From: a virus
Lineage: Duplodnaviria; Heunggongvirae; Uroviricota; Caudoviricetes
Reading direction: 5' to 3' (one strand)
Virus record (IMG/VR): IMGVR_UViG_2529292906_000017
Length of the DNA stretch: 18,305 bases
Part shown: positions 2,619-18,305 of the stretch, one piece after another
Layout of the letters: each line of letters opens with the position of its first letter
How positions within the stretch are numbered: the stretch's first letter is position 1
Translations under genes and position numbers: made by a program
Notes under the pieces: generated by a model
The model's input: only the letters and a program-made list of their open reading frames with translations
What the model was told of the DNA's origin: nothing
Database searches by the model: none

Positions 2619-3209
2619 ATGTCTCGAATTTTTGCTTACTGTCGGATATCAACGCTGGATCAGACCACCGAAAATCAACGCCGGGAAATCGAAAGTGCAG
2701 GTTTTAAAATCAAACCTCAGCAAATAATCGAAGAACACATTAGCGGCTCAGCAGCAACCAGTGAGCGTCCTGGTTTTAACCGGTTGCTTGCTCGCCTGAA
2801 ATGTGGTGATCAATTGATTGTGACAAAACTGGATCGCCTTGGTTGTAATGCAATGGATATCAGGAAAACAGTGGAACAACTGACCGAAACAGGTATCAGA
2901 GTGCATTGCTTAGCATTGCGGGGCATTGACCTGACCAGTCCAACAGGAAAAATGATGATGCACGTAATTTCAGCAGTCGCTGAATTTGAACGAGACCTTT
3001 TACTTGAACGCACTCATTCCGGGATAGTAAGAGCCCGCGGCGCAGGGAAACGTTTTGGTCGACCACCTGTGTTAAATGAAGAACAGAAACAGGTGGTATT
3101 CGAACGAATTAAGTCAGGTGTAAGTATAAGTGCCATTGCCCGGGAATTCAAAACCTCGCGGCAAACCATTTTAAGAGCCAAAGCAAAACTTCAGACACCT
3201 GACATATAA
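2619..3209 (+). CDS. pinQ: Serine recombinase / DNA invertase (Hin/Gin/Pin family)
   Basis: 196-aa ORF; N-terminus [20 protein letters not shown] carries the resolvase/invertase catalytic Ser motif and there is a C-terminal HTH ([20 protein letters not shown]). Symbol inferred from Qin-like context. Confidence 0.88.
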
Positions 3210-3306
3210 AAAATAATCTCGGTGTGAGATGCTTTACGTCTTCCAAGCCCCCTTCCTTGCCGTAAATGGAGAGATACATCTAATTATAGAATTTATATGT
3301 TTTACC

Positions 3307-3882
3307 CTACGGCAGTGCTGGCCATTCAATATCCGGTGCAGTTGATGTATCAACACGGTTCAGCAACACCCGATACTTTTTCCAGGCTTCCAGCAACAAG
3401 GTTTCTTCCTCCGTTGCGATCTCCAGATCCACAGCATCCTGAAGCGGCGCTATATGCTCACTGGCTATCTGCATCAGGCTGTTTTTTGTTTCTTCCGCCT
3501 CCCGGATCCGGAACAGTTTTTCTGCTTCCGTATCCTTCACCCAGGCTGTGCCGTTCCACTTCTGATATTCCCCTCCCGGCGATAACCAGGTAACATTTTC
3601 CGGTAACGGACCGAGTTCAGAAATAAATAACGCGTCGCCGGAAGCCACGTCATAAACCGTTTTACCCCGATGATCTTCAACGAGATGCCACGATGCCTCA
3701 TCACTGTTGAAAACAGCCACGAAGCCTGCCGGAATATCTGGCGGTGCAATATCGGTACTGTTTGCTGGCAGACCTGTATGAGGCGGAATATATGCGTCAC
3801 CTTCACCAATAAATTCATTAGTTCCGGCCAGCAGATTATAAATTTTTATGGTCCGTGGTTGTTCACTCATTCTGAATGCCAT
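3307..3882 (-). CDS. tfaQ: Tail fiber assembly protein (lambda Tfa-like)
   Basis: 191-aa ORF, near-identical over its length to lambda Tfa as recalled ([24 protein letters not shown]...). Start overlaps the stop of the upstream stf fragment. Confidence 0.85.
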
Positions 3883-4190
3883 TACGCAAGCCTCACAATA
3901 TAGTTAAATGCGATGTTTTTGACGGTGTTTTCCGCGTTACCAGCAGCGTTAACGGTGATGGTATGTCCATGTGAACCAATCGCAACGGAGTGCGTATGAG
4001 CACCAATACCGACAGTATGTGCGTGTGCACCTGCGCTTGCAGCAGTACCCGATACAGAGTGCGTATGAGCGCCTGCAGAAGAAGTGTTAACACTGTATTT
4101 AGAATAATCAGGTGATCCACTTCCCGGAGCACCACTGGAACCACCTGAAACAAATGTCATCGAATGGGTATGTGCACCGGCTGTCCCCAT
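3882..4190 (-). pseudogene. stfQ: C-terminal remnant of side tail fiber protein (Stf) with GAHTHS repeats
   Basis: 102-aa ORF with repeated GAHTHS motifs, ending [11 protein letters not shown] as in lambda Stf C-terminus. Only about 100 codons remain; the upstream part is replaced by a J fragment in another frame. Confidence 0.75.
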
Positions 4191-5437
4191 GCATTTACCG
4201 CCCGGACTGTCAGCCTGTAATTTCCCAGCGCCAGCTGCGTGAAGCGATATGTGGTTTCCGTCGTCCGGGCCGTGCTGACCAACCGCTCACTGCCGTCGTC
4301 CGCTGCCACGGTCAGGCGAAGCATAAAGCTCACCCCCTTCACCACCTTCGGCGTGTCCCAGCGCGCCAGCACCTGGTATTCCCCGCTGTCTGCGGTGACT
4401 TCTGCGGTCAGGTGCTGAACTGCTGGCGGCGTGACACCATTCACCGTGCCGCTCTGGTCACCGTCAAAGTGCGCCCCGTTATCCACGATGGCTTCTTTCT
4501 CCGGTACATGCTGCACGGCAGTGATGGCATACGTACCGTCATCGTTCTCACGGATACTCACACAGCGGAACAGGCGCTGACGCAGCGTCGGCAGCTTCAG
4601 CCCCCACACGCTGTACTCGGCAACGCCGTCAGGAACCCGGCTCACTTTCACCTTCACGCCGTCGGTGACGGACTGGACCTCCACGCTCACCGGATTACCC
4701 TGCCCGTCAACCAGGCTTATCAGCGTGGTGCCGGAGGATGGCAGCGTGATTTCACGGTCGAGCGTCAGTGTCCGCGTCTGGCTGTTCACCGCCAGCACGC
4801 GCCCGCCGATGCTGATCCCCGCATAGTCATCATCACAGATTTCAATGACATCACCTGGTACATGGCGAAGCCCTTCGGCACCCACGCTGAAGTCCACGGT
4901 CTGCGTTTCCAGCAGTTCCGTTTTAATCAGCCACAGCCCGGCTCGGTGCGCCTGCCCCCGCCTGGTACAGCCAAAGGCATCCATCTTCGTGACGTTACGA
5001 CCGTAACGGGCAATGGCCTGCGTGTCCTCCACAAGCTCTGTCGCCGTCTCCCAGCCGTTATCCGGGTCAATCCAGTTCACCTCAACGGCATTATGGCGGT
5101 CCTTCAGGGCGCTGAAGCTGTAGCGGAACGGCGCGCCATCATCCGGCATCACCACATTACTGCGGTTATAGGTCCACACCTTATCTGATGGTCGGTCCTG
5201 CACGAACGTCAGCGTCTGCCCGTTCCATACCGGCATACAGCGCATCGCCGAGCAGAAATCACTGAGAACATCCCACGCCTTACGCTGTGTGGTCAGCCAG
5301 GCATTACAGGTGATGCGCGGCTCCGTGCCGCCAAAACCGTCCGGCACCGACTGGTCGCAACACTGGCCGATGACATACAGCGCCCATTTATCCACATCTG
5401 CCGCACCAAGACGTTTACCCATGCCGTAGCGCGGGTG
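4157..5437 (-). pseudogene. Internal fragment of tail tip / host specificity protein J (lambda gpJ-like)
   Basis: Translation from HPRYGMGKRLGAADVDKWALYVIGQ to [11 protein letters not shown] matches lambda J mid-region closely. The first 29 residues of the 455-aa track ORF are an out-of-frame read of Nu1 DNA, and the C-terminus diverges 7 codons before the stop. Confidence 0.8.
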
Positions 5438-5672
5438 GCTGGAGATCTGTCTCGCTGGCCTGCCGCAGTTCTTCAACTTCCCGGCGCAGCTTTTCGTTCT
5501 CAATTTCAGCATCCCTTTCGGCATACCATTTTATGACGGCGGCAGAATCATAAAGCACCTCATTACCCTTGCCACCGCCTCGCAGAACGGGCATTCCCTG
5601 TTCCTGCCAGTTCTGAATGGTACGGATACTCGCACCGAAAATGTCAGCCAGCTGCTTTTTGTTGACTTCCAT
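5415..5672 (-). pseudogene. nohQ: Terminase small subunit Nu1, N-terminal DNA-binding fragment fused into J-derived sequence
   Basis: Translation MEVNKKQLADIFGASIRTIQNWQEQGMPVLRGGGKGNEVLYDSAAVIKWYAERDAEIENEKLRREVEELRQASETDLQP matches lambda Nu1 residues 1-79; homology ends at about 5436 and the frame then reads into J DNA. Confidence 0.8.
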
Positions 5673-5679
5673 TGTTCAT

Positions 5680-5880
5680 TCCACGGACAAAAACAGAGAA
5701 AGGAAACGACAAAGGCCAAAAAGCCCGCTTTCAGCACCTGTCGTTTCCTTTCTTTTCAGGGGGTATTTTAAATAAAAACATTAAGTTACGACGAAGAAGA
5801 ACGGAAACACCTTAAACCGGAAAATTTTCATAAATAGCGAAAACCCGCGAGGTCGCCGCCCCGTAACCTGTCGGATCACC
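5680..5880 (-). other. Lambda-type cos site (cosB, cosN at 5850..5861, cosQ-side flank)
   Basis: Reverse complement of 5673..5861 is GGGCGGCGACCTCGCGGGTTTTCGCTATTTATGAAAATTTTCCGG...GTCCGTGGAATGAACA, i.e. the lambda left end with about 5 substitutions and no indels as I recall it, directly upstream of the Nu1 start. Confidence 0.75.
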
Positions 5881-6060
5881 GGAAAGGACCCGTAAAGTGA
5901 TAATGATTATCATCTACATATCACAACGTGCGTGGAGGCCATCAAACCACGTCAAATAATCAATTATGACGCAGGTATCGTATTAATTGATCTGCATCAA
6001 CTTAACGTAAAAACAACTTCAGACAATACAAATCAGCGACACTGAATACGGGGCAACCTC

Positions 6061-6294
6061 ATGTCAACGAAGAACAGAACCCGCAGAACAACAACCCGCA
6101 ACATCCGCTTTCCTAACCAAATGATTGAACAAATTAACATCGCTCTTGAGCAAAAAGGGTCCGGGAATTTCTCAGCCTGGGTCATTGAAGCCTGCCGCCG
6201 GAGACTGTGCTCAGAAAAAAGAGTTTCTTCTGAAGCAAACAAAGAAAAGAGTGACATTACTGAATTGCTCAGAAAACAGGTCAGACCTGATTGA
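6061..6294 (+). CDS. ynfO: Small ribbon-helix-helix-like prophage protein (77 aa)
   Basis: 77-aa ORF MSTKNRTRRTTTRNIRFPNQMIEQINIALEQKGSGNFSAWVIEACRRRL; basic N-terminus plus beta-strand/helix pattern typical of Arc/CopG-type folds. Symbol from Qin gene order; fold assignment is inference. Confidence 0.6.
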   Translation: MSTKNRTRRTTTRNIRFPNQMIEQINIALEQKGSGNFSAWVIEACRRRLCSEKRVSSEANKEKSDITELLRKQVRPD

Positions 6295-6351
6295 AGCAAT
6301 TTAGATAATCGTGCAGACTACGCCCCCTCATATCACATGGAAGGTTTATCT

Positions 6352-6762
6352 ATGGATCAGGTAGTCATTTTTAAACAAATATTTGATAAAGTTCGAAACG
6401 ATTTAAACTATCAATGGTTTTATTCTGAGCTAAAACGTCACAATGTCTCACATTACATTTACTATTTAGCCACAGAGAATGTTCATATTGTATTAAAAAA
6501 TGATAATACAGTGTTATTAAAGGGCCTAAAAAACATTGTGTCTGTCAAATTTTCAAAGGATAGGCATCTTATAGAAACGACCTCTAATAAGCTGAAATCC
6601 AGAGAGATCACATTTCAGGAATACAGAAGAAACCTTGCTAAAGCAGGAGTTTTTCGGTGGGTTACAAATATCCACGAACAAAAAAGATATTACTATACCT
6701 TTGATAATTCATTACTATTTACTGAAAGCATCCAGAAAACTACACAGATCTTACCACGCTAA
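6352..6762 (+). CDS. ydfO: DUF1398-family prophage protein
   Basis: 136-aa product from the second Met ([30 protein letters not shown]...); the track ORF 6337..6762 adds 5 codons. Placement after ynfO and before gnsB matches Qin order. Confidence 0.7.
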
Positions 6763-6913
6763 ACCATAACGTCCGGCTTCTCTCACTCCTGAGCCGGACT
6801 GCATTGGTTTAATAAAAACCATCAACAATTGTGATTTAGATATTCGGAACCATTCAAATATAACAAAACCCCGTAAAAACGAGGTTTATGGATAAATTTT
6901 ATTATTGAATACA

Positions 6914-7086
6914 TCAGATTAAATTAATCTTGACATCATAGCTTTCAAGACCCGTCATTTTTTCCCGTGCGGTAAACTGAATACTGGTAACTTCTTTCCC
7001 GGTCTTTTTCTTAAGTTCAATAATTTTTTTGTTATATATTCAGAAATATCTGCTTCTGCTTTTGTTTTTAAGTTTTCAATATTCAT
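6914..7086 (-). pseudogene. gnsB: GnsA/GnsB-family protein with an apparent 1-bp contraction in a homopolymer
   Basis: From ATG at 7084..7086 the frame gives MNIENLKTKAEADISEYITKK and stops at 38 aa. A second frame reads IIELKKKTGKEVTSIQFTAREKMTGLESYDVKINLI to stop 6914..6916. They join into a 57-aa GnsB only if the T7 run 7024..7030 were T8. Confidence 0.65.
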
Positions 7087-7560: not shown

Positions 7561-7756
7561 CTTTTTTAAATCCAACGACAGACGGCTGGCATTTAAGTAT
7601 TGTGAAATATTATCAAATGTAATCATCATTGATTTACAAAAGATACATTTTGCCCCGAAAGGATTCATGTCAGAAACATCAAAAGATGATGTTCTATACT
7701 GGGAACCATGACAACACGGGCATCTAAAGTGAATATGGTTTGTAATATTGTCTACC

Positions 7757-7969
7757 TCAAAGCGCCACTACATGAACAGCGGCAGGACCTTTAGGTCCGT
7801 TCTCAATACCAAATTCAACTTCCTGATTCTCAGTTAATGTTTTGAAATCGTTGCTCTGAATTGCTGAGAAATGGACAAACACATCTTTGCTGCCATCTTT
7901 CGGCGTGATGAAACCAAAACCTTTTTCAGGGTTAAACCATTTCACTAAACCAGTCATTTTGTTAGACAT
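7757..7969 (-). CDS. cspI: CspA-family cold shock protein
   Basis: 70-aa [41 protein letters not shown] with RNP1/RNP2-like motifs (KGFGFI, VFVHF). Confidence 0.9.
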
Positions 7970-8330
7970 AATTATTACCTTTTGAAGAAATTAGCCCTTG
8001 GGCAGAATGGTCCGAAAAAAATATCAGAGAGAAAAACCAACAAGGAAATCTCAAGAGGTACAAATAATAAAATTATAACAATGACTGCTTCAGATAAATT
8101 TGTAACAAACCAGAACACCATTAACGCATGATTAACCACCCATAGCAAGGATTACTTTTGTAAAGAAAAACACAGCAATGAAAGAATAGCTTTATTTATT
8201 AATAAAACGTGTCATTCTGATTAAGACCTTTTATCTTACCCTTAAGATTTCAGGAATTTTGGCTCATGGAAGAGTCCTTTTTATTTAAATTTTACATTCC
8301 GCGATGTAAATGTTCCGATTTAATATTACC

Positions 8331-10362: not shown

Positions 10363-10517
10363 TGTGGTGCTTTTTGTGGGAGTCATCCACTTACGCACTT
10401 TGTTTTGCCATGCCAGCAGTTAGCTTCTGCTGTAAAACTATTCATGCAGCAAACCTGCACTTCACCACAATGGTTAGCATACTTTTCCTGATTAAGATTT
10501 TGGGTAATGACTCCAAC

Positions 10518-10895
10518 TTATTGATAGTGTTTTATGTTCAGATAATGCCCGATGACTTTGTCATGCAGCTCCACCGATTTTGAGAACGACAGCGACTTCC
10601 GTCCCAGCCGTGCCAGGTGCTGCCTCAGATTCAGGTTATGCCGCTCAATTCGCTGCGTATATCGCTTGCTGATTACGTGCAGCTTTCCCTTCAGGCGGGA
10701 TTCATACAGCGGCCAGCCATCCGTCATCCATATCACCACGTCAAAGGGTGACAGCAGGCTCATAAGACGCCCCAGCGTCGCCATAGTGCGTTCACCGAAT
10801 ACGTGCGCAACAACCGTCTTCCGGAGCCTGTCATACGCGTAAAACAGCCAGCGCTGGCGCGATTTAGCCCCGACGTATCCCCACTGTTCGTCCAT
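10518..10895 (-). CDS. insB: IS1 InsB transposase domain (InsAB' C-terminal part)
   Basis: [65 protein letters not shown]... matches IS1 InsB. Confidence 0.8.
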
Positions 10896-10914
10896 TTCCG
10901 CGCAGACGATGACG

Positions 10915-11214
10915 TCACTGCCCGGCTGTATGCGCGAGGTTACCGACTGCGGCCTGAGTTTTTAAATGGCGGAAAATCGTGTTGAGGCCAACGCCCATAA
11001 TGCGGGCAGTTGCCCGGCATCCAACGCCATTCATGGCCATATCAATGATTTTCTGGTGCGTACCGGGCTGAGAGGCGGTGTAAGTGAACTGTAGTTGCCA
11101 TGTTTTACGGCAGTGAGAGCAGAGATAGCGCTGATGTCCGGCAGTGCTTTTGCCGTTACGCACCACGCCTTCAGTAGCGGAGCAGGAAGGACATCTGATG
11201 GAAATGGAAGCCAC
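10915..11214 (-). CDS. insA: IS1 InsA with altered C-terminus from a shortened A-run at the frameshift site
   Basis: [43 protein letters not shown]... is InsA (zinc finger plus HTH), but the ORF ends ...[18 protein letters not shown] (99 aa) instead of ...RHLKNSGRSR (91 aa) because TTTAAAAACTC has A5 where IS1 has A6C. Confidence 0.8.
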
Positions 11215-11413
11215 GCAAGCACCTTAAAATCACCATCATACACTAAATCAGTAAGTTGGCAGCATTACCAGATTTTGCCAAATATGCTAGCCATTGTTTC
11301 ATGTATTGGACCTCCTTACTTTTTATTAAAGAGATCCAATATTCACTACTCTGTCCGTATCTCTACTCAGGCATCAGCCTTCTTCGTTATCGTATACAGA
11401 CGAGCGATGAATT

Positions 11414-11629
11414 TTAATCAGTAATGATGACATTTGCTGCTGCAGGACCTTTAGCACCACTCTCTATAGAGAAGGTAACCTTTTGACCTTCAAATAAGGT
11501 TCGATAATTATCATTCTGAATCGCAGAAAAATGCACAAACACATCTTTACTACCATCAACAGGAGAAATAAAGCCGAAACCTTTATCAGCGTTAAACCAT
11601 TTTACTAAACCAGTCATTTTATTTGACAT
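11414..11629 (-). CDS. cspB: CspA-family cold shock protein
   Basis: 71-aa [41 protein letters not shown]..., paralogous to the ORF at 7757..7969. Confidence 0.9.
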
Positions 11630-11929
11630 TCTACATTCCTTAACTTGAGCCTTTCGGCATAAATGGTTTGCATAACAGAAACGACTTCGTACTTAATTGG
11701 AGAGACTCAAAGAAGGAATAAGTGAATAACACCTGAAATGAGAACTGCTTTAGTAAACTACTTCGTATATCGTCTGTTCTTCAAACCGACGCAATCATTA
11801 ACGCATAGTTGAACATATGAAGCAATGTTTATTTTAGACATCCAGCCATCTTCAACCCCATCAAAAAACTATAGCTTTCTTCAGGAACGTGTGTATAGTG
11901 CGCCAAGTTATCAGTATTAAGGAATTTTT

Positions 11930-16149: not shown

Positions 16150-17037
16150 AGACACCATATACTTTGTGACGGTCTGAATCGCCACGGATAATCTAGACAC
16201 TTCCGAGCCGTTGATAATACTGGTTTTCATATTCTGTCGGTGACATCTGATCGCTGGAACCATGCCGACGCTTACTGTTATAAAACATTTCGATGTAATC
16301 AAAAATATCGCTGCGGGCTTCTTCCCGCGTTCCGTAGATCTTTTTCTTTATCCGTTCACGTTTCAACAACTGGAAAAAACTTTCTGCAACCGCATTATCA
16401 TGGCAGTTACCGCGACGGCTCATGCTACCCTCCAGGCCGTGTGATTTCAGGAACGACTGCCACTCATGGCTTGTGTACTGACTGCCCTGATCCGAATGAA
16501 CCAGCACCTTTTTTTCGGGATTACGCCGCCATACAGCCATCAGCAGTGCGTTCAGGACAATGTCCTTTGTCATCCGGGATTGCATGGACCAGCCGATAAT
16601 TTTGCGTGAGAACAGATCAACAACAACGGCAAGATACAGCCAGCCTTCGTGGGTCCTGATGTAGGTTATGTCCGTTACCCAACGCTCATCAGGAGCATCC
16701 GGATTGAACTGTCGCTGGAGCCTGTTGGGTGACACGATACTGGCCTCGCCTTTACGTGCCCGCGGGCTTCGGTATCCGACCTGAGCCTTTATTCCGACAC
16801 GTTTCATCAGTCTCCAGACTCTGTTTACTCCGCACTGTTGCCCGCTGTCACGCAGATCCAGATGGATTTTGCGATAACCATAGACGCATCCCGATTCCAG
16901 CCAGAACTGTTTAATCTGTCCTGTCAGTCTCAGGTCTGCCTGATGGCGTTGTGAATGCGGCTGCTGAAGCCAGGCGTAAAAACCACTGGGATGAACATCC
17001 AGCACCCGACAGAGCAGGCGAACAGGCCAGCAACAGG
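16150..17037 (-). mobile_element. IS600-like IS3-family element, truncated where the next IS begins; outer boundary approximate
   Basis: Contains a complete orfB; its reading frame continues open upstream to 17037, where the TGAACCGCCCCGG terminus of the next IS begins, so orfA and the other end lie outside the window. Confidence 0.7.
16193..17005 (-). CDS. IS3-family transposase OrfB (IS600-like), DDE integrase domain
   Basis: 270-aa ORF (GTG start) with ...WVTDITYIRTHEGWLYLAVVVDLFSRKIIGW...HSDQGSQYTS...CHDNAVAESFF, the DDE motif region of IS3-family transposases. Confidence 0.85.
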   Translation of the reverse strand: MLDVHPSGFYAWLQQPHSQRHQADLRLTGQIKQFWLESGCVYGYRKIHLDLRDSGQQCGVNRVWRLMKRVGIKAQVGYRSPRARKGEASIVSPNRLQRQFNPDAPDERWVTDITYIRTHEGWLYLAVVVDLFSRKIIGWSMQSRMTKDIVLNALLMAVWRRNPEKKVLVHSDQGSQYTSHEWQSFLKSHGLEGSMSRRGNCHDNAVAESFFQLLKRERIKKKIYGTREEARSDIFDYIEMFYNSKRRHGSSDQMSPTEYENQYYQRLGSV

Positions 17038-17091
17038 TGAACCGCCCCGGAAATCCTGGAGACTAAACTCCCTGAGAAAGAGGTAAACAGG

Positions 17092-17418
17092 ATGACTAAA
17101 AATACTCGTTTTTCCCCCGAAGTCCGTCAGCGGGCGATTCGTATGGTTCTGGAAAGTCAGGATGAATATGACTCACAGTGGGCGGCAATTTGTTCCATTG
17201 CCCCAAAGATTGGCTGTACGCCGGAGACTCTGCGTGTCTGGGTTCGCCAGCATGAGCGGGATACCGGGGGCGGTGATGGTGGGCTCACCACCGCTGAACG
17301 TCAGCGTCTGAAAGAGCTGGAACGTGAAAATCGTGAACTGCGCCGCAGTAACGATATCCTTCGCCAGGCTTCCGCTTATTTTGCGAAGGCGGAGTTCGAC
17401 CGCCTCTGGAAAAAATGA
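17092..17418 (+). CDS. IS3-family transposase OrfA (HTH plus leucine zipper)
   Basis: 108-aa [60 protein letters not shown]...[27 protein letters not shown]. Confidence 0.85.
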
Positions 17419-18305
17419 TGCCACTGCTGGATAAGCTGCGTGAGCAGTACGGGGTCGGACCGGTATGCAGCGAACTGCATATTGCCCCGTCAACGTATTA
17501 CCATTGTCAGCAACAGCGACATCATCCGGATAAACGCAGTGCCCGTGCGCAGCACGACGACTGGCTGAAGAGAGAGATACAGCGCGTATACGATGAAAAT
17601 CATCAGGTGTACGGTGTGCGTAAAGTCTGGCGTCAGTTGTTACGGGAAGGAATCAGGGTGGCCAGATGTACAGTGGCGCGCCTCATGGCGGTTATGGGAC
17701 TTGCCGGTGTTCTCCGGGGTAAAAAGGTCCGCACTACCGTCAGCCGGAAAACCGTTGCCACAGGTGACCGCGTAAACCGTCAGTTCGTGGCAGAACGTCC
17801 TGACCAGCTGTGGGTGGCTGATTTTACTTACGTCAGCACATGGCAGGGCTTCGTCTATGTGGCGTTTATCATTGATGTGTTTGCCGGATACATCGTGGGG
17901 TGGCGGGTCTCATCGTCTATGGAAACGACATTCGTGCTGGATGCGCTGGAGCAGGCGTTGTGGGCCCGTCGTCCGTCTGGCACCATCCATCACAGCGATA
18001 AAGGCTCTCAGTATGTGTCACTGGCCTATACGGAGCGACTAAAAGAAGCCGGATTACTGGCATCAACAGGGAGTACAGGCGACTCGTATGACAACGCGAT
18101 GGCTGAGAGCATCAATGGTCTTTACAAAGCGGAGGTAATACACCGTAAGAGCTGGAAAAACCGTGCAGAAGTGGAACTGGCCACACTAACGTGGGTGGAC
18201 TGGTATAACAATCGACGATTGCTGGGAAGGCTGGGCCATACTCCTCCGGCAGAAGCAGAAAAAGCTTATTATGCTTCCATCGGAAACGATGATCTGGCAG
18301 CCTGA
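17415..18305 (+). CDS. IS3-family transposase OrfB (IS629-like), DDE integrase domain
   Basis: 296-aa ORF with ...[31 protein letters not shown]...[10 protein letters not shown]...[16 protein letters not shown]. Confidence 0.85.

Follow-up and report, generated by a model that had tools for sequence, protein, structure and literature searches.

Locus and Genomic Setting

The stretch of DNA analyzed here (18,305 nt, hereafter the window) is the Qin cryptic prophage of E. coli, beside ydfJ. The hallmarks of Qin were all found: a truncated ydfJ, the series ynfT-ydfK-pinQ-tfaQ and, further on, ynfO-ydfO-gnsB-cspI-rzpQ-rrrQ-essQ-cspB-relBE-hokD. The genes from ydfJ to rrrQ in this order are those annotated as neighbors of the locus. 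Positions 3200-6400 gave 100% matches among complete E. coli genomes in megablast. The window was collinear with the Qin prophage of K-12 MG1655 at 98.5-99.9% nucleotide identity (BLAST) on both sides of a variable segment, and the collinearity was broken at 4074-5435, at an IS1 element (~10503-11270) and by IS3-family sequence from 16175 to the end. In a set of 189 strains, the size of Qin ranged from ~11 to 97 kb, and the prophage is known as a hotspot of deletion and insertion (PMC6379469); a deletion scar of this type is to be expected here.

The genes at the junction locus are on the minus strand. In reading order, these are the first ~79 codons of the small terminase subunit gene Nu1 (nohA; 5436..5672), an internal fragment of the tail-tip gene J (4180..5438), a C-terminal remnant of stf (3882..4183) and the intact tail fiber assembly gene tfaQ (3307..3882). 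TfaQ has 191 aa, is encoded directly after stf, covers positions 1-130 of 131 of Caudo_TAP (PF02413, E = 2e-43) and is 96% identical to lambda Tfa over 191 aa. A match to the Rfam model IS009 (221 bits, 3341-3539, minus strand) was located wholly within the tfaQ CDS. The serine invertase gene pinQ (2619..3209, plus strand; annotated, with the Pfam domains Resolvase and HTH_7) adjoins tfaQ and has no part in the junction.

Other insertions and elements were observed elsewhere in the window. Relative to K-12 Qin, an insertion of ~770 bp (~10503-11270) between ynfU and cspB was 97% identical to the IS1 copy of strain BUCT2930. The homology to K-12 Qin stopped inside ydfV, and the following IS3-family sequence (16175-18305) contained a 270-aa transposase ORF on the minus strand and then ORFs of 108 and 296 aa; an ALIL frameshift pseudoknot was matched at 17373-17489, together with the latter two IS3-family ORFs. 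The exact IS arrangement of 16175-18305 was found in no complete E. coli genome of the collection, which suggests that the source of the window was an IS-rich strain. In addition, Rfam matches to the cspA thermoregulator were obtained at 7730-8114 and 11398-11790, on the leaders of cspI and cspB.

Remnants of J and stf

The J fragment represents codons 281-700/701 of about 1132-1137, in frame and free of internal stops, and lacks the N-terminal 280 and the C-terminal ~435 codons. In BLASTN, window 5438-4177 aligned with J of phage mEp460 at 98.3% nucleotide identity, and the identity to J of a prophage in strain 2018-06-4CC was 94.6%. In tblastn, residues 281-700 of mEp460 J matched with 99.3% amino acid identity over 420 aa; the match of lambda J also started at residue 281, and AVNAWGQ corresponds to lambda J residues 694-700. 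Compared with intact J, there were 17 synonymous versus 3 non-synonymous codon differences. Of the features of lambda gpJ, the central Phage-tail_3 domain (PF13550, E = 1e-42) and the Ig-like domain (PF24421 Ig_J, E = 5e-35, cut at profile position 90 of 104) were present, and the full length of ~1130 aa, with the N-terminal ~280 residues and the receptor-binding C-terminus, was not found by tblastn. The J piece is a fragment and is predicted not to be a functional member of the gpJ family.

The original prediction that J homology stops after AVNAWGQ and that the frame ends seven codons later agreed with both the sequence and the translation. The codons after Q read PVHIPIR and are followed by a TGA stop at 4159-4157; this out-of-frame tail (4157..4179, minus strand) is stf-derived DNA. 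The J frame as a whole is contained in the ORF list as a 455-aa ORF (4157-5524, minus strand). A 358-aa ORF antisense to the J fragment (4112-5188, plus strand) was not backed by any independent evidence; the most likely reading is an open frame that arose by chance on the strand facing a GC-rich gene.

The Stf remnant comprises codons 977-1075 and the stop codon of a 1075-aa Stf. BLASTN of window 4183-3301 recovered Stf plus Tfa at 95.8-96.7% identity to the intact pairs of two E. coli prophages (L004 and L005), and tblastn gave 99% amino acid identity to residues 976-1075 of the L005 Stf. There were 5-7 synonymous and no non-synonymous differences from intact Stf. The remnant matched PF03335, contained five HxH motifs together with the conserved C-terminal end, and aligned with residues 166-242 of 242 of the T4 gp37 tip chain (2XGF, E = 4e-25), while the N-terminal tail-attachment domain and the shaft were not found by tblastn. 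The native TAATG overlap between the stf stop and the tfaQ start was retained. Since the E-values of the J and Stf homologies were ~0, these homologies are not chance patterns. As predicted, the Stf remnant begins at once and in another frame, which was confirmed by the ORFs and the base alignment. It had been described as the last 100 codons of Stf; the remnant itself was recovered, and the exact count is 99 complete codons and 2 nt.

The homology of the remnant to K-12 stfQ ended at 4073/4074, exactly at the end of the GAHTHS-coding repeat unit 4054-4073, and upstream of this point K-12 has another number and arrangement of HxH repeats. The HxH repeats of stf look like recombination or mosaic joints.

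The missing genes were searched for by tblastn with J, Lom, and Stf from lambda, mEp460, and an E. coli prophage, and no match to J 1-280, J 701-end, Lom, or the Stf N-terminus and shaft was obtained in the 18.3-kb window. Lambda Lom and two other Lom proteins gave zero matches in the window, as did Stf residues 1-975 and lambda orf-401. These searches bore out the predicted content of the locus: the receptor-binding C-terminus of J is gone (cut after 700/701 with both lambda and mEp460 J as queries), lom is missing, stf has lost codons 1-975 and keeps the last 99, and only tfa is intact, with a near-full Caudo_TAP domain and an intact annotation by PGAP.

In an identical genome, PGAP marked the Stf remnant as the pseudogene “tail fiber protein, missing N-terminus”, J as a pseudogene missing the N- and C-termini, and the terminase small subunit as a pseudogene “missing C-terminus”. 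A 102-aa gene was not called, and the pseudogene limits differed by at most 2 bp from those mapped here. The J and Stf remnants are thus already annotated as pseudogenes, and the junction is an ordinary scar of prophage decay.

Mapping of the J/stf Breakpoint

The breakpoint was placed by a base-level three-way alignment of the window with intact J (mEp460 and L005) and intact Stf (L004 and L005). J reads ...AATGCATGGGGACAGC/AGGGCGATCC, Stf reads ...GGCTGCTTCAGC/CGGTGCACATACC, and the window reads ...AATGCATGGGGACAGCCGGTGCACATACC. The only bases common to J and Stf at the join were CAGC (gene strand, 4180..4183), and there was no filler DNA. As CAGC is present in both parental sequences, the crossover occurred somewhere within 4180-4183, an interval bracketed by the region 4157-4200 that had been proposed from inspection. 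Alignment to J, lom, stf, and tfa with mapping of the breakpoint therefore put the join at this 4-bp microhomology; the BLASTN limits were 4177 for J and 4183 for Stf. In random blunt joins, a microhomology of at least 4 bp would arise by chance in ~1.6% of cases.

The distribution of the junction was examined with a 90-nt query in 5426 complete E. coli genomes. It was fully matched in 91, and ~3000 other genomes matched the J half or the Stf half only, with the half-matches ending at query positions 47/50 or starting at 44, and meeting at the same four bases. The recurrence in 91 genomes, together with the ~3000 that have one half, means that the junction is not an assembly artefact. An exact scan of one-genome-per-species contigs with a 39-nt junction sequence gave no match, and therefore the junction was not seen outside the set of complete E. 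coli genomes.

The proximity of pinQ, ~1 kb from the junction, and the presence of IS1 and IS3-family elements within the window raise the idea that the junction was made by PinQ site-specific recombination or by an IS-adjacent deletion. Pin-family invertases act inside tail-fiber genes in Mu, P1, and e14. However, gix/hix-like cores were not above chance in the window, there was no IS end at 4180-4183, and both sides consisted of phage coding DNA to the base, which leaves this origin a negligible probability. The pattern AAACCNNGGTTT, tried as a candidate Pin site, gave a single 1-mismatch match, at 6876, which is no more than chance. No inverted repeats flanking the junction were detected, and the repeat search found only the GAHTHS-coding repeats and chance pairs.

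The First Junction and the Sister Variants

The junction had been called the second at this locus, and the first one was found at 5436..5438 (minus strand), where Nu1/nohA codon ~79 is joined out of frame to J codon 281 at a 3-bp microhomology, CCA. Homology to K-12 nohA resumed at 5436 and J homology ended at 5438, and the join was checked base by base against two longer variants (L008 and L010). The Nu1 fragment covers positions 1-81 of 164 of Pfam Phage_Nu1 and is 98.5% identical to K-12 nohA; the annotated Nu1 ORF (5415-5672) continues out of frame into J DNA. At most 26 of the 5426 genomes have this junction; compared with the form of strain FDAARGOS_1337, it takes away 477 bp.

The sister Qin variants of strains 300709, NCTC9040, FDAARGOS_1337, RM10410, and BUCT2930 have the same CAGC junction, Stf', tfaQ, and pinQ as the window. 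BUCT2930 is identical to the window in the junction region, while the left sides of the others differ: 300709 has Nu1-A'-W-B'-C'-G'-T-H' followed by a longer J' than the window, NCTC9040 has Nu1-A'-W-B'-J'(211-701), FDAARGOS_1337 has Nu1-J'(211-701), and RM10410 has Nu1 and only ~100 J codons. By BLAST, the other sister forms are nested deletions of the 300709 form. Since the scar is common to these nested left-side variants, the J'/Stf' scar is older and the Nu1'/J' junction of the window is a later loss. The nested left-side deletions by which L007-L010 differ are what would be expected of stepwise decay. The FDAARGOS_1337 form could have arisen by way of an NCTC9040-like stage or straight from a variant whose Nu1 3' end was intact; both routes are possible. 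Across the locus, the carriers were ~99.7-100% identical (five of them, L001 and L007-L010, compared at base level).

The endpoints of these deletions were also compared. In the sister variants L007-L010, three junctions begin at one Nu1 position, ...GATGAACTGATA (equivalent to lambda ~697), and lead into A' (AAGGGGCATCC), J codon ~211 (CCCGAACACGG), or J codon ~600 (ACGGGGCGCAC). The B'-to-J deletion of NCTC9040 and the Nu1-to-J deletion of FDAARGOS_1337 have the same J end base (TGCTA/CCCGAAC). The Nu1 and J endpoint sites are alike, G[A/C]TA..GGGG, as in a hotspot or in reuse of microhomology. It is a doubtful proposal that the G[A/C]TA(N2)GGGG-like motif at the 3' end of lambda Nu1 may be a true hotspot of illegitimate recombination, as opposed to a site where microhomology was reused by chance, and, as a separate matter, that the 102-aa ORF at the stf junction may be expressed with TfaQ.

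Parental Arrangement and Proposed Origin of the Scar

A structural model of the parent was found in strain 2018-06-4CC, which has a nearly complete lambdoid prophage of ~44 kb, likewise integrated next to ydfJ, with the order ...J-lom-stf(1075 aa)-tfaQ-ydfJ'. The order and orientation of J-lom-stf-tfaQ are those of the remnants in the window. This prophage has CAGC at J position 2042-2045 and CAGC at stf position 7000-7003, and fusing both copies recreates the junction of the window with a loss of 4958 bp. The small terminase of this prophage belongs to another type, and its J and Stf are 94.6 and 95.8% identical to the window; on account of its terminase and its J, the prophage serves as a model of the structure and is not the ancestor itself. 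An exact parent was not found: J was matched best by mEp460 (98.3%), a different element from the best syntenic prophage, and therefore the contiguity of J and stf in one ancestor rests on the conserved lambdoid gene order.

Could the two halves have come from two genomes? J' and Stf' might have been joined by illegitimate recombination between two elements, e.g. Qin and a superinfecting or second lambdoid prophage, and never have belonged to one genome. The closest intact J (mEp460) and Stf (L004 and L005) do sit in different elements, lambdoid tail-fiber regions are mosaic, and between K-12 and the window the homology of stf changes over at 4073/4074, where an HxH repeat unit ends. Yet J' and Stf' lie in precisely the order and orientation of a single J-lom-stf-tfa block of the kind extant at this chromosomal site; moreover, both flanks are Qin DNA, and a one-step deletion is more parsimonious. 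A two-element origin is thus very unlikely.

The structural features of an illegitimate deletion were observed: the flanks are collinear with one contiguous parent, a short sequence is shared, and filler, an IS end, and a recombinase site are absent. We therefore favor, with a probability of roughly 0.93, the interpretation that the junction is a non-functional scar from one RecA-independent, microhomology-mediated deletion within a lambda-like prophage at the Qin site. The deletion would have removed ~5 kb, from the CAGC that follows codon 700/701 of J to the CAGC at codons 976/977 of stf, and with it the receptor-binding C-terminal part of J, lom, and ~975 stf codons. J and stf would thereby have been joined out of frame, so that the J frame ends after seven foreign codons, and a chance ATG in the J sequence would open the stf frame and give the 102-aa ORF. 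Downstream, tfaQ would have survived intact with its TAATG coupling to the stf stop.

Because there is a 4-bp microhomology without filler, IS end, or recombinase core, we infer that the mechanism was probably replication slippage or microhomology end-joining, independent of RecA. The scar itself probably lacks function. The remnants have no frameshifts and no stops, and their differences from the intact genes are mostly synonymous, which means that sequence decay does not reveal the loss of function; the mostly synonymous differences would fit a fairly recent loss with little later decay.

The 102-aa Open Reading Frame

The chimeric 102-aa ORF (3882..4190, minus strand) consists of ATG GGG ACA from J DNA in a shifted frame and then 99 Stf codons. 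Its start codon (4190-4188) is the ATG within GC-ATG-G of the J codons Ala-Trp, 34 nt upstream of the stop of the J frame and in a different frame. Since the ATG lies in J DNA, the first three codons are J and only 99 are Stf. Exact GAHTHS occurs three times (residues 5-10, 40-45, and 63-68), with the further motifs GAHAHT (residues 54-59) and GSHGHT (residues 72-77). Protein searches with the ORF returned no full-length parent, the short or partial fragments recovered being no longer than 178 aa, and the intact Stf parent was located through a DNA search instead.

We considered whether the ORF might be a functional small gene, encoding a fiber-tip protein that forms a trimeric HxH needle folded by TfaQ and that is under selection together with tfaQ. 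It has an ATG and no disabling mutation, its differences from intact Stf are all synonymous, it is coupled by TAATG to an intact tfaQ, and a 102-aa “phage tail protein” (P0001) appears in the annotations of some submitters. On the other hand, the ORF begins, start codon included, with three codons of J DNA read in a shifted frame, a good Shine-Dalgarno sequence is missing (the nearest purine-rich run upstream, GGGCGG, is at best a weak one), and the promoter/terminator scan found no promoter-like site upstream, the sites being no more than in shuffles. The match of the ORF to the gp37 tip is confined to the last 77 residues; the first needle strand, the head, and any attachment domain are missing, and PGAP calls a pseudogene. 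As the carriers are ~99.7-100% identical across the locus, conservation of the ORF is uninformative on selection. Taken together, a functional gene is extremely improbable. The original prediction had named a complete stand-alone fiber-tip gene with its own start and ribosome-binding site as the finding that would overturn the deletion, and the J-derived ATG and first three codons speak against such a gene; so do the halves, which are separate in ~3000 genomes and joined in 91, and the lack of a promoter-like site upstream. On this evidence the 102-aa ORF appears to be a by-product of the deletion junction, not a stand-alone gene. Since the Stf remnant is only the last strand of a gp37-type HxH needle, it cannot build a fiber.

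Comparison With Known Systems and Implications

The Qin prophage of K-12 MG1655 (nohA-stfQ-tfaQ-pinQ) resembles the window in its ydfJ site, in its flanks, and in a late region collapsed by deletion with tfaQ and pinQ kept. In K-12, a 189-aa nohA is joined directly to the last 320 stf codons and J DNA is absent, whereas the window leads from Nu1 codon ~79 through J 281-701 to the last 99 stf codons. As K-12 keeps stf DNA upstream of the stf breakpoint of the window and has no J, neither form derives from the other, and these are independent paths of decay.

A similar outcome is known from lambda PaPa, in which, as Hendrix and Duda reportedly described in 1992, the side tail fiber gene is inactivated (orf-401/orf-314) and tfa is intact. 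Like the window, lambda PaPa combines an inactivated stf with an intact tfa, and residues 235-314 of orf-314 match the remnant at 74%. The routes differ, since in lambda PaPa Stf was lost by a 1-bp frameshift with J, lom, and stf DNA all kept, while in the window ~5 kb was deleted. The remnant aligns with the last 77 residues of the T4 gp37 tip (2XGF), HxH motifs and conserved end included, but it represents the returning C-terminal strand only, and the N-terminal needle strand and the receptor-binding head are missing.

Outside annotation, the scar is of little importance. Its ORFs of 102 and 455 aa are best regarded as pseudogene fragments and not as genes, and the CAGC breakpoint at 4180-4183 is a clean derived marker for one Qin sub-lineage (91 of 5426 complete genomes). 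The scar and its nested sister variants make a small worked example of stepwise prophage decay, and the comparison with K-12 shows that K-12 Qin and the Qin of the window lost their morphogenesis genes independently.
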